64,000 nucleotides of DNA from Bacteroidales bacterium (lineage in GTDB: Bacteria > Bacteroidota > Bacteroidia > Bacteroidales > P3). The stretch is from positions 10,140-74,139 of the forward strand of contig JAFYSZ010000017.1 of assembly GCA_017559135.1 (NCBI GenBank), written 5' to 3'. Of this stretch, positions 3,505 to 44,103 are shown one piece after another. Below the pieces are notes generated by a model. It was not told where the DNA came from and did no database searches. It saw nothing but the letters and a program-made list of their open reading frames with translations. The stretch's first letter is position 1, and every line of letters begins with the position of its first letter. Both the position numbers and the translations under genes were made by a program.

Positions 3505-4029
3505 ATGAACAGAGTAAAGAAAAAAATGATGTTATTGGGCTTATTTGCCTTGGCTTCGATGAATGTTTTTGCTTCAAACGAAGAAGAAAATAAAAATATT
3601 CATTATAAACAATCCTATAAAGGAAATGTAGAACTGTCTTGTGGAGTAAAAGATACTTGGTCTTTTCTTACTTCTCACGGATATAGCTTTGGAAATGGAT
3701 TATACTTAGGAGGAGGTTCTGGTTTTAGTGCAGAGTTTTTGCCAGAGTATGATTCTAACCCGAGAGTATTGCTTCCACTTTTTGCAGACTTGAAATATAG
3801 TTTTTGTAATAGCGTTGTAAGTCCATTTGTTGGTGTGAGAGCAGGAGGATATGCTCACGTGAATAGTGAGGAAGTTGAAGGCGTAAGAGTTTTTGTTAAT
3901 CCTGCTGTGGGATTAGAAATAAAGAGATTTTCAATAAGAATAGGCTATGAATATCAACACAATGCTTGGGGCTTTGAACAAGGAAACAATAAGCATCGAT
4001 TAAGATGTGGAATAGCAATTATGTTTTAA
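3505..4029 (+). CDS. small outer-membrane beta-barrel family protein (174 aa)
   Basis: Signal peptide (..LFALASMNVFASNE), alternating Gly/aromatic beta-strand pattern, and a C-terminal aromatic residue (..CGIAIMF). A TActTTTG box lies at 3466-3473. Confidence 0.6.
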   Translation: MNRVKKKMMLLGLFALASMNVFASNEEENKNIHYKQSYKGNVELSCGVKDTWSFLTSHGYSFGNGLYLGGGSGFSAEFLPEYDSNPRVLLPLFADLKYSFCNSVVSPFVGVRAGGYAHVNSEEVEGVRVFVNPAVGLEIKRFSIRIGYEYQHNAWGFEQGNNKHRLRCGIAIMF

Positions 4030-4066
4030 CAAAAAGAGGAATGATTTTTTCATTCCTCTTTTTTAT

Positions 4067-5455
4067 TTATTTTGCAAAGGCGTGTTTGTATCCTTTTTGC
4101 AAGTTCCAATATCCTCGTGTGAAGTCAGGGATTGCAACAGGCATATTGCCATTTTCGATTGAAAGACGTGATAGCTCTATTATAGAACACCACTCTGCAA
4201 GGTCGTAAACGTCCATATCTAATGGTAATCCATTTTGTAGGCAATAGATTAGCCTCCAATCCATAATGAAATCCATACCTCCGTGTCCTCCAACTTGCTT
4301 TGCTTTTGCTTCTAACTCAATATGAATTGGGTGTTTGTACTTTTGCATCAGTTTTTCTTTGATTTCTTTGCTTACTGCTTGATGTGCGTTGAGGTTTTCG
4401 TGGTCTGGAATTATGGTTGTGTCAAAATTAGTTGTTTGAAAGCAGTATTGTTCTATTGGATATTTGTTTGCAAAACCGTTTGTGCCTGTTAGTTGATACA
4501 TTCTGCTGTATGGACGTGGTGTCATTACGTTATGTTGAATGTGAAGTGTCTTTCCGTTTTCGGTTTGTATGAGAGTGAGAGTGTGGTCTGCGTTTTGAAA
4601 TTCTATGTCTTTGTTTTTTACTCCGTATTTCTTTGCAAACTTCTTGCCATTTATGGATTTGGTGTCCATAGAGACCAAAGTTTTCATTCTATCTCCACGA
4701 TGAATGTTGAGAAGTTGGCAAGCAGGTCCTATTCCGTGCGTTGGATAAACATCTCCTCTATGTTCGTTGTTGTAATTCAGTCTCCAATTGTCATAATAGT
4801 AAGGCCAAAATTCTTCTAAATAGTGAATATAAGAACCTTCTACGTGAATAAGTTCTCCGAAAAGTCCTTGTTGTGCCATATTTAGCGTTGTCATTTCAAA
4901 GAAATCATAGACACAATTTTCTAATTGTATGCAATGTTTACGAGTTTGTTCACTTGTGTTGATTAAATCCCATATTTCTTCCAAGGTCATTGCGGCAGGC
5001 ACTTCTATTGCTACGTGTTTACCTTGTTGCATTGCGTAAACTCCAATGTTTGCGTGGTTTTCCCAATCGGTAACAACGTATATTAGGTCTATGTCATCTC
5101 TTTCGCAAACTTTTTTCCAGAGTTTTTCGTCTCCTGAATACGAATCTGCTGGTTTTTTACCTGATGAGATTAGCGTTTTATTGGCATTTTCTACTAATTC
5201 GCCTCTTATGTCGCAAAGAGCTTTGATTTCTACGCCCGGAATATGAATAAAGCGTTCTACTGCACTGATTCCTCGCATTCCTAACCCGATTATGCCTATG
5301 CGAACGGTGTCAATTTTTGGTGCGACAAGGCCAATGACGTGTGTTTGTCCTTTTGGACGAGCGGGTTCTTTGACTTTTATTGGTTGATATGCGGTTTTGC
5401 ATGAGCAAAAGACTATTGTGATTAGCAATAGCATAAAAAAGTGTTTTTTTGCCAT
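4067..5455 (-). CDS. Gfo/Idh/MocA-type NAD-binding oxidoreductase, GH109 (alpha-N-acetylgalactosaminidase)-like lipoprotein
   Basis: Rossmann motif VRIGIIGLGMRG after a lipoprotein-type signal (..ITIVFCSCK). Overall length and C-terminal region match GH109-like proteins from memory. The start was moved to the ATG at 5455 to avoid overlapping the lptD-like gene. Confidence 0.7.
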   Translation of the reverse strand: MAKKHFFMLLLITIVFCSCKTAYQPIKVKEPARPKGQTHVIGLVAPKIDTVRIGIIGLGMRGISAVERFIHIPGVEIKALCDIRGELVENANKTLISSGKKPADSYSGDEKLWKKVCERDDIDLIYVVTDWENHANIGVYAMQQGKHVAIEVPAAMTLEEIWDLINTSEQTRKHCIQLENCVYDFFEMTTLNMAQQGLFGELIHVEGSYIHYLEEFWPYYYDNWRLNYNNEHRGDVYPTHGIGPACQLLNIHRGDRMKTLVSMDTKSINGKKFAKKYGVKNKDIEFQNADHTLTLIQTENGKTLHIQHNVMTPRPYSRMYQLTGTNGFANKYPIEQYCFQTTNFDTTIIPDHENLNAHQAVSKEIKEKLMQKYKHPIHIELEAKAKQVGGHGGMDFIMDWRLIYCLQNGLPLDMDVYDLAEWCSIIELSRLSIENGNMPVAIPDFTRGYWNLQKGYKHAFAK

Positions 5456-39439: not shown

Positions 39440-39498
39440 AAAACGCTCGTGAGTCTTAGTTTTCTTTTGACAAGCGAGCGTTTTTCGTTTTTTTTCTC
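39440..39498 (+). terminator. rho-independent-type terminator after the WD40 mini-gene
   Basis: Stem aaaacgctcg/cgagcgtttt with a long (about 25 nt) loop, followed by TTTTTCGTTTTTTTT. Confidence 0.6.
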
Positions 39499-39564
39499 TT
39501 AATTTTTAAAAATTATTTTTGAAATATATCTCTGTTAATAAGTAATAATAATTAAATTTGCATT

Positions 39565-40608
39565 ATGAAAGATTTGTATAATTGTAATAGTGGAGATTTT
39601 ATTGCTGATATAAAACAGATAATAGAGCAATCAAGAAAGCAAGCGTACGTTTCTGTTAATGCAATTATGATTCGATTGTATTGGTTGCTTGGGAAACGTA
39701 TTGTAGAAGAAGAACAAGGCGGAGATTCTCGTGCAGAATATGGAAAATTCTTACTTACGAATCTTGCAAATGAACTAACAGCGATTTATGGCAATGCTTA
39801 CAGTGTTCGTCGCTTACGAGAATATAGACAATTCTATGTGTATTTCAGTGATTTAGAAATGTGGCAGTCGCGAGTGCCGAATTTAACTTGGACACATTAT
39901 AGAGAGCTTATAACCGTTCACGAAAAAGAAGCACGTAATTGGTACATGCAAGAAGCATCAAACGAAATGTGGAGTGTAAGAACGTTGCATCGCAATATTT
40001 CTTCGCAATATTATTATCGTTTATTGCAAGCGCAATCAAAGGAAGTGGTGATTGATGAAATGAAACAAATCACTGCACCTTTGCAAACAGACAAATTAGA
40101 ATTTATTAAAAACCCTGTGGTTGCAGAATTTTTGGGATTGGTAAATAATCCTCAATTTTCCGAGACTGAATTGGAGAATGCTATTATTACTCATTTACAA
40201 AAATTCATTATGGAGTTAGGTAAAGGATACGCATTCGTTGCTCGCCAACAGCATATTCGTACTGATATGGGAGATTTCTTTATTGATCTTGTTTTTTATA
40301 ACTATATCTTAAAATGTTTCTTGCTTATTGATTTAAAAACCGAACAAATAAGTCATCAAGATGTAGGACAAATGGATATGTACATTAGAATGTATGATGA
40401 ACTTAAAAGAACAGAGGGAGATAATGCAACAATAGGACTTATTCTCTGCTCTAAAACAAGTGAAGATATGGCAAGATATTCTATGTTAAAAGACAACGAA
40501 AGATTATTTCAAGCAAAATATCTTACTTTTTTGCCAACAAAAGAAGAATTGACGAATGAAATTGAACAACAAAAGATAATATTCCAATTACAGCAAGAGA
40601 ATAAATAA
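39565..40608 (+). CDS. YhcG/DUF1016 family PD-(D/E)XK nuclease-domain protein
   Basis: N-terminal YhcG-like helical domain (..NAIMIRLYWLLGKRIVEEEQGG..RAEYGKFLL..L) and a C-terminal PD-(D/E)XK core (..GDFFIDLVFYNYILKCFLLIDLKTEQ..). Confidence 0.8.
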   Translation: MKDLYNCNSGDFIADIKQIIEQSRKQAYVSVNAIMIRLYWLLGKRIVEEEQGGDSRAEYGKFLLTNLANELTAIYGNAYSVRRLREYRQFYVYFSDLEMWQSRVPNLTWTHYRELITVHEKEARNWYMQEASNEMWSVRTLHRNISSQYYYRLLQAQSKEVVIDEMKQITAPLQTDKLEFIKNPVVAEFLGLVNNPQFSETELENAIITHLQKFIMELGKGYAFVARQQHIRTDMGDFFIDLVFYNYILKCFLLIDLKTEQISHQDVGQMDMYIRMYDELKRTEGDNATIGLILCSKTSEDMARYSMLKDNERLFQAKYLTFLPTKEELTNEIEQQKIIFQLQQENK

Positions 40609-40661
40609 CAATAATCGTGCTAAAATCTTGTTAAATTAAGACTTCGTTTTTTTCCCTTGAA

Positions 40662-40727
40662 TTTTGTGTAGCGATTACTTTTCTTTATCTTTGCAAAATG
40701 GATTTAAAGGAAAGAAAAAAGGAACTT
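40662..40727 (+). repeat. left copy of a perfect 66-bp direct repeat (identical to 44038-44103)
   Basis: Base-by-base comparison: ttttgtgtagcgattacttttctttatctttgcaaaatggatttaaaggaaagaaaaaaggaactt. The flanking bases differ on both sides. Confidence 0.95.
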
Positions 40728-40825: not shown

Positions 40826-42112
40826 ATGGAAATAAATACTAAACATACACTTGTTATAGGAGATAGCAGAAATTTATCTTTGATACCAGATAAATCTGTT
40901 CATCTTATTATTACATCACCGCCCTATTGGCAACTAAAGGATTATGGTAATGATAATCAGATAGGGTTTCATGATAGTTATGAGGGTTATATAAATAATC
41001 TTAATATGGTTTGGTCTGAGTGTAATCGCATATTACATGATGGTTGCCGTTTGTGCATTAATATTGGTGATCAATTTGCTCGCTCCGTATATTATGGTCG
41101 TTATAAGGTTATTCCTATCAGAACAGAAATAATTCGTTTTTGTGAAACATTAGGTATGGATTATATGGGAGCTATTATCTGGCAAAAACAGACAACAATG
41201 AATACGACTGGAGGAGGTGCTGTTATGGGGAGCTTTCCGTATCCAAGAAATGGTATTCTGAAAATAGATTATGAGTTTATTCTCATTTTTAAGAAACAAG
41301 GTAAAGCACCTGTTCCTTCATTAGAACAAAAGAAATCTTCCGAAATGACAAAAGAAGAGTGGAATACATATTTCTCTTCTCATTGGACTTTTGGAGGTGC
41401 AAAACAAGATGGTCATATTGCTGTATTCCCGGAAGAACTACCTTATCGTTTGATTAAGATGTTTTCTTTTGCTGGAGAAACTGTTTTTGATCCTTTTATG
41501 GGCAGTGGAACAACCGCATTAGCAGCACGAAACCTTCAGAGGAATTCCTTTGGATATGAAATAAATCCTGATTTCGTGGATTACTATAAGCAAAAAGTTG
41601 ATAATGCTCATCTGTTTAACAATTCAACGTGTCTGTATAAAGTAGATTCTTCTATGGTTAACAAAGAAGAAAAACTAAATACATTACCTTATGTGTTTAA
41701 TGACCCACATAAAATGGAAAGTAAAATTGATATAAAGAAACTCCAATTTGGTTCAAAAATAGATAAGGATAGCAAGGAACGTGAAGAGTATTATTTTGTA
41801 AAGAGTGTTCTTTCCCCAAATACTGTTATACTTAGTAATGGGTTAACAATTAAGTTGATTGGAATAAAAGAGAAACCTTCTGTAAATGGAAGTGCTACAA
41901 GATTTCTTATAGAGAAAACAAAGGGTAGAAAGGTTTTTCTAAAATATGATTCAGTGAAGTATGATTCTGACAACACGTTGTTGTGCTATTTATATTTAGA
42001 TAATAAGACATTTATAAATGCACATATGCTAAAGAATGGTTTGGCAGAGGTAGATATGGCTGCCGATTTTAAATATAAGTCAAAATTTATAACCTACAGT
42101 TATGGCAAATAA
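40826..42112 (+). CDS. beta-class N4/N6 DNA methyltransferase (SPPY motif, likely m4C) fused to a C-terminal catalytically degenerate SNase/thermonuclease-like domain
   Basis: Motif IV ITSPPYW near the N-terminus precedes motif I VFDPFMGSGTTALAA, which is the beta-class order. The C-terminal ~110 aa align by eye to staphylococcal nuclease (..LLCYLYLDNKTFINAHMLKNGLAEV vs ..[24 protein letters not shown]). The Ca-binding and catalytic residues (DGDT, D40/E43, R35, R87) are replaced. Confidence 0.8.
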   Translation: MEINTKHTLVIGDSRNLSLIPDKSVHLIITSPPYWQLKDYGNDNQIGFHDSYEGYINNLNMVWSECNRILHDGCRLCINIGDQFARSVYYGRYKVIPIRTEIIRFCETLGMDYMGAIIWQKQTTMNTTGGGAVMGSFPYPRNGILKIDYEFILIFKKQGKAPVPSLEQKKSSEMTKEEWNTYFSSHWTFGGAKQDGHIAVFPEELPYRLIKMFSFAGETVFDPFMGSGTTALAARNLQRNSFGYEINPDFVDYYKQKVDNAHLFNNSTCLYKVDSSMVNKEEKLNTLPYVFNDPHKMESKIDIKKLQFGSKIDKDSKEREEYYFVKSVLSPNTVILSNGLTIKLIGIKEKPSVNGSATRFLIEKTKGRKVFLKYDSVKYDSDNTLLCYLYLDNKTFINAHMLKNGLAEVDMAADFKYKSKFITYSYGK

Positions 42113-42431
42113 TATACAAGAAGTGCAACGCTTGCTTGGATACATTCCTTATGGAAAGTCCAATGCAATACATGCAGAAGATATAGCATTACAGTTAGGA
42201 TATTCGACTGGTGGAAATCAAGTTGAAACGCGTCAGTTAATACGTTACGCTATTCAACAGGGCAATATTATTCTAAGTACACCTGCGAATGGGTACTGGC
42301 GTTCTAATAACAAACAGGAAGTGATAGATTATATAAATGCATTATTAAGTAGGGCCGATGATATACTAACAAGAAGTAACGAAATTAAGAATGCATGGAA
42401 TAGTGTAAATCCTAATAATTTAATACCATAA
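42102..42431 (+). CDS. small (109 aa) winged-helix-like protein between M and R genes; possible controller/DNA-binding component
   Basis: Overlaps the M gene by 11 nt and ends 2 nt before the next ATG. The pattern ..AEDIALQLGYSTGGNQVETRQLIRYAIQQGNIILS..GYW.. looks like helix-turn-helix plus wing. This is inference only. Confidence 0.45.
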   Translation: MANNIQEVQRLLGYIPYGKSNAIHAEDIALQLGYSTGGNQVETRQLIRYAIQQGNIILSTPANGYWRSNNKQEVIDYINALLSRADDILTRSNEIKNAWNSVNPNNLIP

Positions 42432-42433
42432 TA

Positions 42434-43114
42434 ATGAAAAAACATTCGCTTGATTTTGGGAAGAAAGAACGCGTATTAAATTACGCTTGTCAAACATATC
42501 AGTTATCTCGCCCTAATAAAGTTGGAGCTGTTATGGCATTGATTAGAGAGTGTCAACCGAATTCTTTTGAAGAATGGGAGCAGTGGTATTTCTTAAATGC
42601 TCATACATCAGGGAAGAAACCTACCAAAATAACCAATGAAAGTTTACGAGAATTGGGTGAACGTTTGTATGTCAAGATTACGGAGATAGTTATTCCTGAG
42701 TGGGAAAGTGCTTTTAGAGAACTGACGGAGCAAGATTGCATCGATTATATCTATAATCTTACAATCAATAGAACTTACGATGGATATTTGCGTGAAAAAT
42801 CTGTTATAAACGATGGATTAGCCAAACTCTTCCCAGATGTGGTATTTGAAGAAAGTGATCCAGAATTAGATCATGCTGGTGATATCGATTATGTAGCTAA
42901 AATTGGGAATGCATCTATTGGAATCCAGATTAAACCAATTACTGCAAGCGCTAATTTTGGCAGCTATTCATTAACTGAAAGAATGAAAGCAAGCTTTGAA
43001 TCTTTCAAAGAACAATATGGTGGAAATGTCTTTGTCGTTTTTAGTTTAGATGGAGAAATTGCAAACAAAGAAGTGATTGAACAAATGAAATTAGAAATTG
43101 AACGTTTATCATAA
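42434..43114 (+). CDS. putative type II restriction endonuclease (226 aa), PD-(D/E)XK-like
   Basis: Position directly downstream of a methyltransferase in the same operon. Candidate nuclease core ..DPELDHAGDIDYVAKIGNASIGIQIKP.. (D..D-x13-QxK). My unverified recollection is that proteins like this are annotated MjaI-family (CTAG). Confidence 0.5.
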   Translation: MKKHSLDFGKKERVLNYACQTYQLSRPNKVGAVMALIRECQPNSFEEWEQWYFLNAHTSGKKPTKITNESLRELGERLYVKITEIVIPEWESAFRELTEQDCIDYIYNLTINRTYDGYLREKSVINDGLAKLFPDVVFEESDPELDHAGDIDYVAKIGNASIGIQIKPITASANFGSYSLTERMKASFESFKEQYGGNVFVVFSLDGEIANKEVIEQMKLEIERLS

Positions 43115-43226
43115 ATACATGTAATTATGATTCTACAATAGGAATAAAAGTTTAAAACTCTTTGTTTGATGTTATACAATATGGCATAGAATTTAAATTT
43201 AGTAGTATATTTATATTCTTGGAAAA

Positions 43227-43670
43227 ATGAAAGATTTTGATATTAAATTTGTAATACTAATAGCTTTTTTATTAGGGCTATTATCGGGAATCTGTATTAC
43301 TTGTTTGTGTAAAAATAAAATTTCTTTTAGGAAAATGCTAGGTAATATTGCATCTTTTCTACAAAATAACTGGTATATTGTAATTTTAATTACATCTATA
43401 AGTTATGTTGTTATTAAATATCCCGATTGTGCAGATTTTACTTTATTTTCAAACTTTAATGGTGACAATCTTGTTTTTGTGTTATGTTTGATAATACTAA
43501 TACTCCCCTTATTTGATAAATTTGAATTGTTTGGAGTTAATTTAATATTACGAAGGCAAAATGAAAAGTCTGATGAGGCAGCGGAAGAAGCTATGAATAA
43601 TGAAATTCCTAAAAAAGATGAATTTTTAAAAGAATTAACTTCTAAAAGGAAAGGAGAAAACAATGAGTAA
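43227..43670 (+). CDS. hypothetical membrane protein (147 aa, about 3 TM helices, charged C-terminal tail)
   Basis: Hydrophobic stretches FVILIAFLLGLLSGICITCL, WYIVILITSISYVVI and LVFVLCLIILILPLF, and an acidic/basic tail. No known motif. Confidence 0.55.
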   Translation: MKDFDIKFVILIAFLLGLLSGICITCLCKNKISFRKMLGNIASFLQNNWYIVILITSISYVVIKYPDCADFTLFSNFNGDNLVFVLCLIILILPLFDKFELFGVNLILRRQNEKSDEAAEEAMNNEIPKKDEFLKELTSKRKGENNE

Positions 43671-43911
43671 TGTTGGAATAAAAAAAGTTATTGAGGTGGG
43701 ATTAGAGTTGATGCAATCATCTTTAACAGAACAACAATATAATATATGGCTTGAATATTCAAAGTCAATGCTTGAATTGGTGTCCAAGAATAAATATATA
43801 ATGATGAATTATATGAAAGTTATTTTAAAGGCGTCAGATCCTAATTTAGAACCATATCAACGCATTGGTATGTGTTTAAGGTATTTAATAAGTATTCAAT
43901 CTATATTGTAA
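43663..43911 (+). CDS. hypothetical small helical protein (82 aa)
   Basis: The start overlaps the preceding stop (ATGAGTAA, 8-nt overlap), indicating translational coupling. No known motif. A weak hairpin lies at 43939-43955 downstream. Confidence 0.5.
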   Translation: MSNVGIKKVIEVGLELMQSSLTEQQYNIWLEYSKSMLELVSKNKYIMMNYMKVILKASDPNLEPYQRIGMCLRYLISIQSIL

Positions 43912-44037
43912 GGGGAAATAGCCAAATTTTTTATCGATAAGGATATTTATTCCTTTGTATTATAATGGCAAGAAGTATTGTGAGATAAACGATATTTAAT
44001 AATTATACTTTAATAGTAGCTTGTTTTTTTCGTTTTG

Positions 44038-44103
44038 TTTTGTGTAGCGATTACTTTTCTTTATCTTTGCAAAATGGATTTAAAGGAAAGAAAAAAGGAA
44101 CTT
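44038..44103 (+). repeat. right copy of the perfect 66-bp direct repeat; contains the functional promoter (TTTG 44039-44042, TATCTTTG 44062-44069) and the start of the cyclo-ligase gene
   Basis: Identical to 40662-40727 (offset 3376 bp). Confidence 0.95.

Follow-up and report, generated by a model that had tools for sequence, protein, structure and literature searches.

Several described systems combine a small membrane protein with a soluble partner encoded by a neighboring gene. In the SpoIISA/SpoIISB system of Bacillus subtilis, the first gene codes for a toxin with three transmembrane (TM) segments and a cytoplasmic extension, and the gene directly downstream codes for a small soluble antitoxin that binds this extension. 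The type IV toxin-antitoxin (TA) system CptA/CptB (YgfX/SdhE) consists of an inner-membrane protein of about 135 amino acids (aa) and an all-helical soluble protein of about 88 aa, the latter, CptB/SdhE, being a conserved housekeeping flavinylation factor. Here we analyze a gene pair of similar build, termed A-B below, from a stretch of 64,000 nucleotides (nt) of a Bacteroidales bacterium (GenBank assembly GCA_017559135.1, contig JAFYSZ010000017.1, positions 10,140 to 74,139 of the forward strand), which as a whole is referred to as the window. Gene A (43227..43670, plus strand; 147 aa) is predicted to code for a three-TM protein and gene B (43663..43911, plus strand; 82 aa) for a small soluble partner. 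The pair defines a previously undescribed and unnamed family that is embedded in the defense islands of Bacteroidales and whose logic resembles that of known two-gene membrane systems. We favor, with a probability of roughly 0.45 and on the strength of sequence and genomic context, the reading that A-B is an autonomous module of the TA or abortive-infection kind, made up of a membrane protein and its partner.

Like SpoIISA/SpoIISB, A-B comprises a multi-TM protein encoded first and a small soluble partner encoded next, both in one operon. However, Pfam searches with A (E≤1) and with 18 B proteins (E≤5) matched neither family of that system, the cytosolic part of A consists of one charged helix instead of a folded domain, B forms a four-helix bundle of 82 aa in place of a peptide of about 56 aa, and A-B belongs to another phylum and to a defense-island context. 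In its sizes and its combination of a membrane protein with a helical soluble one, A-B is similar to CptA/CptB, but the gene order is reversed and no homology was detected. RexA/RexB of phage lambda and Kiwa (KwaA/KwaB) are likewise two-gene membrane defense systems made up of a small multi-TM protein and a cytosolic partner. Their partners, however, are far larger sensors or effectors (RexA, 279 aa; KwaB, DUF4868), and A and B lack a PADLOC match and are not phage borne in the collections searched. A further shares with class I holins of the lambda S105 type a length of about 100 to 150 aa, three TMs predicted to be arranged N-out/C-in, and a highly charged tail at the C terminus. Unlike these holins, it has no endolysin, spanin, or phage context and no match in Pfam or the phage collections, and its partner is a separate four-helix protein rather than a dual-start antiholin. 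Finally, longer relatives of A join its TM hairpin to a weakly DUF4145-like region, which is reminiscent of DUF4145/HEPN membrane proteins and RAZR, but A of the window is without this domain, to which B shows no homology either. Abortive-infection systems make use of DUF4145 as a HEPN RNase domain (PMC3710099; RAZR, PMC13017515). The TM domain described for DUF4145 proteins differs from the hairpin of A in being one helix with a WP signature (PMC3710099).

Gene organization and protein features of the pair

The two genes are joined by an 8-nt start/stop overlap, ATGAGTAA (43663..43670, plus strand), a translational coupling junction that can be read directly from the DNA and is formed by the ATG of B (43663-43665) and the TAA of A (43668-43670). 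A Shine-Dalgarno (SD)-like GGAG, part of AAAGGAG, lies within the last codons of A (43653..43656, plus strand), 6 nt 5' of the ATG of B. The open reading frames (ORFs), their sizes, and the overlap are as given in an earlier note made from the letters of the window. For counts of pairing and context, we collected about 110 loci (labeled L001 and so on). An overlapping ORF follows the short form of A in 105 of 106 loci, and the proteins encoded by it align with B of the window, their length being exactly 82 aa with few exceptions. Nearly all of these 105 pairs have the junction ATGA[AG]TAA, with overlaps of 11 or 14 nt in a few, and this junction is conserved across subfamilies with only about 30 to 35% identity. 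The SD-like motif AAGGAG(G) is found 5 to 7 nt before the ATG of B in 28 of 30 distinct junction sequences (as GGAG or GAGG) and occupies differing codon registers of A (KGE, EGG, and KEA), and the same motif is present in only 2 of the 42 long ORFs of the window. SD sequences are rarely used in Bacteroidota. Given its conservation in different registers and its rarity in both the window and the phylum, the site looks like the outcome of nucleotide-level selection for the initiation of B.

Pairwise ratios of nonsynonymous to synonymous substitution rates (dN/dS) within subfamilies have medians of 0.18 for A and 0.11 for B, indicating purifying selection on both. In light of this selection, their conservation elsewhere, and a junction kept across divergent subfamilies, A and B are real genes, and their existence, conservation, strict pairing, and coupling junction are established. 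Among the disrupted copies, all on low-coverage metagenome contigs in which errors are possible, two loci have a broken A (nonsense or frameshift) next to an intact B (L083, about 3900-4304; L093, about 3700-4106), and none of the collected loci showed the reverse, with A clearly intact and B broken. In L012 (312-560), a nonsense change (TGG to TAG) has struck the invariant W29 of B, but here the contig breaks off within A.

Hydropathy analysis of A recovered the three hydrophobic helices and the charged tail recognized earlier, placing the former at residues 8-28, 48-64, and 82-96 and revealing 10 K/R and 13 D/E among the 51 residues of the latter. As loop 1 has four K/R and no acidic residue (+4) and loop 2 has three D and no basic residue (-3), the positive-inside rule predicts an N-out/C-in topology with three TMs. 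The conserved portion is a TM2-loop-TM3 hairpin (residues 48-96), followed by a juxtamembrane PLFDKFELFG and the charged helical tail; TM1 is variable in the family and missing in some members. The family core (about residues 45-105) consists of WY..L..S..YV, a short outward loop with C..F.F...FNG.N, a TM3 that ends in an invariant proline, and F..FE.FG. In the alignment, P94 is invariant and W49, Y50, F77, G79, F84, E100, and G103 are near-invariant.

No hydrophobic segment was found in B by hydropathy. Its AlphaFold2 model, based on an alignment of 18 sequences, is a four-helix bundle (helices at 2-17, 23-40, 44-57, and 64-81) with a predicted local distance difference test score (pLDDT) of 92.3 and a predicted template modeling score of 0.81, which bears out the all-helical appearance first noted from the translation. 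We are confident in predicting that B is a soluble four-helix bundle. Its conserved residues include W29, Y32, Y50, C71, and L75. The family can thus be defined by the core of A (WY..L..S..YV, FNGxN, and PxFxxxExFG), a B of about 82 aa with W29, Y32, C71, and L75, and the overlap ATGA[AG]TAA; A and B of the window carry every one of these features.

Word-based searches recovered homologs of A at 59 and 44% identity and of B at 76 to 78% identity. A profile of A retrieved 204 proteins at E≤1e-3, 56 of them at E≤1e-10, from 1.84 billion cluster representatives. In a set of 5.8 billion proteins, a profile search recovered 255 clusters (at 90% identity), all of which lack both a Pfam domain and a functional name. 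The two ORFs are therefore far from being confined to this genome, as the earlier note had allowed for, and none of the searches turned up homology to a housekeeping family. Its failure to recognize a motif in either protein likewise holds for the databases: Pfam, PADLOC, PHROGs, and NCBIfam gave nothing significant for A or B, and neither did sequence searches of PDB with profiles of A, B, and the fused forms described below. Specifically, A had no match in PADLOC (PADLOC-DB v2) at E≤1 and only unrelated, sub-threshold Pfam families at E≤1, with holin families included in Pfam, while B had no match at E≤1 in PADLOC or NCBIfam, and the 18 B homologs retrieved only unrelated, sub-threshold families from Pfam at E≤5. 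In Foldseek searches of PDB and BFVD with the model of B, nothing scored below E 0.6, and the top matches were generic four-helix domains such as nucleotidyltransferase helical domains and the SRP54 N domain.

Two identities considered for B were set aside. JGI/IMG labels one 82-aa homolog (P0272) a "predicted RNA polymerase sigma factor," a label without support, as no sigma family was matched by the 18 B proteins in Pfam at E≤5, none was found in NCBIfam, and no sigma factor occurs among the 50 Foldseek PDB matches listed. An origin of B as the split-off DUF4145-like domain of the fused relatives of A was rejected on an hhalign probability of 0.15%.

These relatives, of 230 to 300 aa, share the TM hairpin of A (hhalign probability, 99.6%) and continue past it with a coiled coil, a helical domain with weak DUF4145 matches (E about 5e-4, below the Pfam threshold), a conserved NRG[VI]HGE, and often a zinc ribbon at the C terminus. 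A of the window has no DUF4145 domain, its charged tail standing in that place. No B-like ORF follows the fused gene in the one locus examined (L030), and the contexts of two genes for fused forms were uninformative or no more than loosely defense-like. Judging from the architectures with a DUF4145-like domain, the TM domain of A appears to have been recurrently joined to conflict-type cytosolic modules.

Neighborhoods and mosaic history

The genes on both sides of A-B vary combinatorially. Directly upstream, we found an MjaI-type restriction-modification (R-M) unit (in the window and L011), an SDH-type ClpP-like protease (PF01972) with or without a gene for a 76-aa protein, and, in other loci, bSEFIR, the single-gene candidate PDC-S33 (RelA/SpoT-like), an NgoFVII/PLD nuclease, AAA_15 with DUF4276, DUF4062, NTP_transf_5, or a 415-aa protein of no recognized family. 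Directly downstream of B lie ABC-3C (MC3; DUF3732/AAA_23), HATPase_c/Rec-like/HNH genes (HK-Rec-HNH), GMT-wHTH/DUF5131, and, in other loci, Hachiman (HamA and helicase), Metallophos/DO-GTPase, nSTAND3, or DUF4062 with SIR2_2 further on. Additional contexts include an R-M system of ResIII/RE_endonuc and an N6_N4 methylase with DUF4062; putAbiC, SIR2, and nSTAND3; and PARIS-like and STAND genes. A recognized defense gene lies within three genes of the pair in 73 of 103 loci, which, on partial annotation, is a raw fraction without a matched background, many of the loci being near-identical metagenomic copies. The bSEFIR-type gene of L023 (3513-4946) consists of two adjacent ORFs of 191 and 282 aa that correspond to consecutive parts of one PADLOC model and is thus split or frameshifted.

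With neighbors that vary combinatorially and are mostly defense systems, A-B is an autonomous module and not an accessory of R-M. Nor is it a missing subunit of its neighbors, as several of those upstream are complete single-gene systems. The question of whether the pair always travels with R-M genes can hence be answered in the negative: it adjoins at least a dozen unrelated systems, also where no R-M genes are present. The proposal of a second defense layer riding with the R-M unit of the window remains reasonable insofar as the pair elsewhere is nearly always found among defense genes, but its tie to R-M is incidental.

The family is common in gut metagenomes and occurs in bacteria of human and animal guts. 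Gut Bacteroidales are major phage hosts with a poorly charted defense repertoire. In a pattern scan based on the window-type alignment, close relatives of A were found in 3 of 185,579 species genomes, from Bacteroidaceae, Muribaculaceae, and Barnesiella, while the broad family profile, with the genome of the window itself excluded, had a match in 1 genome out of 400 drawn from the phylum and in 3 out of 400 drawn from the order. Relatives of A-B were absent from IMG/VR (pattern scan) and from 50,697 phage records and 72,556 plasmids (tblastn), and no endolysin or phage genes were found in the approximately 110 loci.

Two integrase-bearing elements, L003 and L013, have the gene order integrase, helix-turn-helix (HTH) protein, methyltransferase, MjaI endonuclease, SDH-type protease, 76-aa gene, A, and B. 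By blastn, the methyltransferase and endonuclease of the window are 92 to 93% identical to those of these elements, in contrast to 76% for A-B, which shows that A-B comes from another lineage than the R-M genes. Positions 42453-43216 of the window are collinear with L003 5600-6363 at 92.6% identity and reach 90 nt into the PF01972 protease gene of L003 (start, 6274), whereupon homology resumes only at L003 7558, near the start of A. The 90 nt (43127..43216, plus strand; blastn) constitute a decayed 5' remnant of the SDH-type ClpP-like protease gene that contains stop codons and takes up the larger part of the space separating A from the endonuclease gene. The remnant and the subsequent jump in homology to A show that the protease and 76-aa genes were deleted in the window. 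Accordingly, by sequence comparison, A-B of the window is best described not as a co-mobilized R-M partner, as had been supposed, but as the surviving 3' end of a protease/76-aa/A/B block of an R-M-carrying integrative element.

The protease gene has been lost or broken in at least four independent ways, namely, by the deletion in the window, a different and complete deletion in L011, a split in L001, and the insertion of an insertion sequence in L005/L006, and A-B is intact in every one of these cases. Such persistence amid decaying neighbors is what one expects of a module that is addictive or useful in its own right. Altogether, three divergent lineages of SDH-type proteases precede A-B, in two divergent A-B subfamilies. 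The proteases of L098 (4122-5171) and L103 (5022-5918) are only 25% identical, against 95% for the adjoining A-B pairs, which suggests an exchange of protease genes beside one and the same module. The 415-aa protein encoded upstream of A in 18 loci (e.g., L064, 2416-3663) had no Pfam or PADLOC match, and phmmer aligned it weakly and collinearly in two places with proteasome beta subunits of archaea (the N-terminal Thr region and a C-terminal GG.IDVA; E 0.14, not significant), so that it may be a divergent N-terminal-nucleophile hydrolase with a large insert. A literature search on PF01972 in defense found nothing relevant.

Possible functions of the module

What sets the pair apart is its strict pairing, conserved junction, and phylum-unusual SD-like site, together with its fused HEPN-type relatives and recurrent protease neighbors. 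The strict coupling, the toxin-first gene order, the defense-island context, the fused HEPN relatives, and the retention of A-B amid decay argue for a membrane toxin with a cognate partner, and the two loci with a broken A and an intact B, in the absence of a clear reverse case, count in the same direction, as do the purifying selection on both genes, the autonomy of the pair, and the predicted topology. According to this model, A is a small inner-membrane protein whose hairpin, together with its long charged cytoplasmic helix, would allow it to oligomerize and to damage or depolarize its membrane, acting like a holin, SpoIISA, or RexB. B would be produced from its overlapping, SD-led start in a fixed ratio to A, form a cytosolic four-helix bundle, and bind the tail of A to keep it inactive. 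Infection or loss of the locus might then remove or displace B and release A, the module thereby acting as an abortive-infection and/or addiction (TA-like) unit. The toxicity of A, its interaction with B, and the trigger are what we infer in this scheme. If it is correct, A-B would represent a new small effector family for abortive-infection and TA biology and a compact marker with which to locate defense islands in Bacteroidales.

Several observations weigh against the toxin-partner reading. No homology of A or B to a known toxin, antitoxin, holin, or defense protein emerged from the family databases, PDB, or the Foldseek searches with B, in which we also found no recognizable DNA-binding or sensor domain. 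The structure model of A is of low confidence (pLDDT, 62) and for this reason was left out of the fold search, which makes the formation of a pore or oligomer conjecture. The raw nature of the fraction of loci with a nearby defense gene counts on the same side, as does the recurrent adjoining of three divergent SDH-type proteases, which might reflect a functional tie outside a simple toxin-partner model. In the human-gut subfamily, moreover, A-B is placed 18 to 70 nt 5' of varied defense operons with the cargo diverging at the stop codon of B, and a regulatory or platform role fits this spacing and divergence equally well.

In that case, A-B would serve neighboring defense operons as a front end for regulation or sensing or as a platform for recombination, with A as a membrane sensor bearing a conserved outward loop and B as a small adaptor that controls or licenses the downstream systems, and the promoter-A-B block would be an anchor for cassette exchange. 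We regard this as rather unlikely, though it would bear on how defense cassettes are exchanged. In the human-gut subfamily, about 100 nt 5' of A are conserved regardless of the upstream gene (e.g., L048, 5840-5937; L078, 5620-5716), and this block holds a palindrome, TCTTTCTA(N0-10)TAGAAAGA, about 55 nt before the start of A, which might serve the module as an operator or promoter. At the other end, the identity between loci (L074, L078, L020, L041, and others) stops within a few bases after the stop codon of B without a conserved 3' segment, and the subsequent sequence depends on the downstream defense system; the loss of identity at this point marks a sharp breakpoint of cassette exchange. 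Of 99 downstream genes, 81 share the strand of A-B, the median gap being 49 nt, and the unsupported sigma-factor label in IMG on one member of a B cluster would have pointed the same way. However, the 18 B proteins include no sigma or HTH family at E≤5, and none of the 50 PDB matches listed by Foldseek is significant. Furthermore, downstream systems such as Hachiman and ABC-3C are known to be complete without such a pair, and in the window and the L003-type elements, A-B is the last pair of the cargo, with no defense operon following it.

The protease neighbors raise two further explanations. In one, which we consider unlikely, A-B belongs to an abortive-infection family with a holin-like effector restrained by B and, in its full form, licensed by a dedicated, self-compartmentalizing protease (SDH/ClpP-like or proteasome-beta-like) that removes B or trims the tail of A, the promoter-A-B block serving in addition as an anchor for the swapping of defense cassettes; the logic would be that of bacterial gasdermins, with unrelated parts. 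In the other, A-B would be the membrane anchor, substrate, or regulator of an SDH-type ClpP-like or proteasome-beta-like protease system, as in NfeD-stomatin pairs or protease-activated pore formers, and the copy in the window a nonfunctional leftover. The placement of PF01972-type proteases directly 5' of A-B in two subfamilies, the nonsignificant proteasome beta matches of the 415-aa protein, and the protease-gene remnant kept in the window are all in line with this, but A-B has stayed intact and under purifying selection after the repeated protease losses, many contexts have no protease at all, and about 170 nt lie between the 415-aa gene and A, among them the conserved block also present without that gene. 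This second explanation is therefore very doubtful in our assessment. Non-suicidal membrane exclusion of the Imm/Sp or SieA kind, with A blocking the entry of phage DNA or the assembly of the injection machinery and B stabilizing or regulating it, would suit A as a small protein of the inner membrane whose extracytoplasmic loop (C68, F71, F77, G79, and N81) is strongly conserved, and the defense-island setting of the pair. Yet classical exclusion genes are prophage borne, and the family lacks relatives in IMG/VR and the phage records, while a simple block of entry would not be expected to involve a conserved partner in the cytosol or a long, charged tail there; we hold it to be quite unlikely. 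Most improbable of all is the absence of any conflict role, with A-B either hitchhiking neutrally or contributing an accessory function of the envelope or a capsule locus. Although capsule-type genes (DegT, glycosyltransferases, NTP_transferase, UDP-glucose dehydrogenase, and FdtA) are frequent in the wider neighborhood, the immediate neighbors are overwhelmingly defense genes, the distribution is patchy in the relatives of the host as well as in the phylum and order samples, and strong purifying selection and the conserved coupling are at odds with neutrality.

The islet in the window and its surroundings

A-B of the window is located in an islet bounded by direct repeats, the left copy of which (40648..40727, plus strand) comprises 80 nt and is 94% identical to the right one (44024..44103, plus strand). 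The right copy spans the promoter and first codons of the gene for 5-formyltetrahydrofolate cyclo-ligase, so that the repeat is a duplication of this segment with A-B between its two copies. The exact core of 66 nt corresponds to 40662-40727 and 44038-44103, the first 66 bases of the query matching the left copy at 100%, and the position of the pair inside these boundaries, as initially described, is thereby confirmed. Five genomes of the same genus have an uninterrupted site without the islet and the pair was found in 0 of 100 relatives searched, which together indicate a recent insertion.

The islet genes are all on the plus strand and begin with a type II R-M unit (40826..43114, plus strand). 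It is composed of an N4/N6 methyltransferase with an SNase-like C terminus (40826-42112, plus strand; Pfam and PADLOC), a 109-aa inserted gene (42102-42431, plus strand), and an MjaI-family endonuclease (42434-43114, plus strand; Pfam and PADLOC). By blastn, the 109-aa gene, an insertion covering 42089-42452, is missing from L003 and L013, and likewise from L011, with 92 to 93% identity on both sides; its sole family match is phrog_2113, of unknown function. An Rfam scan gave only group-II-D1D4-5 at 42717-42901 within the endonuclease gene, at 21 bits against a gathering threshold of 34.5 (E 0.14), which is probably a chance match.

The left repeat copy contains a Bacteroidetes-type promoter (TTTG...TAnnTTTG) that points toward the islet genes. 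The pattern TTTG-N17-23-TAnnTTTG occurs 28 times in the whole window versus 7 times expected and is present in both repeat copies (40663-40693 and 44039-44069), which suggests that the left copy would drive the islet genes. The exact motif was not found directly 5' of A, a scan for sigma-70 promoters and terminators gave counts no higher than background, and no stable hairpin was found 3' of B. With the promoter of the left repeat facing the islet genes, all of which share its direction, cotranscription of A-B with the R-M genes is plausible.

To the left of the islet lies a gene for a YhcG/DUF1016 nuclease, whose product, like the methyltransferase and endonuclease, has a strong PADLOC match. 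The region (39491-40727, compared with G018/L123) is 99.3% identical in one genome of the same genus, in which the adjoining core gene is only about 87% identical, and the nuclease is missing from two other relatives. This disparity in identity, along with the patchy presence, suggests that the YhcG/DUF1016 nuclease gene is itself recently exchanged cargo.

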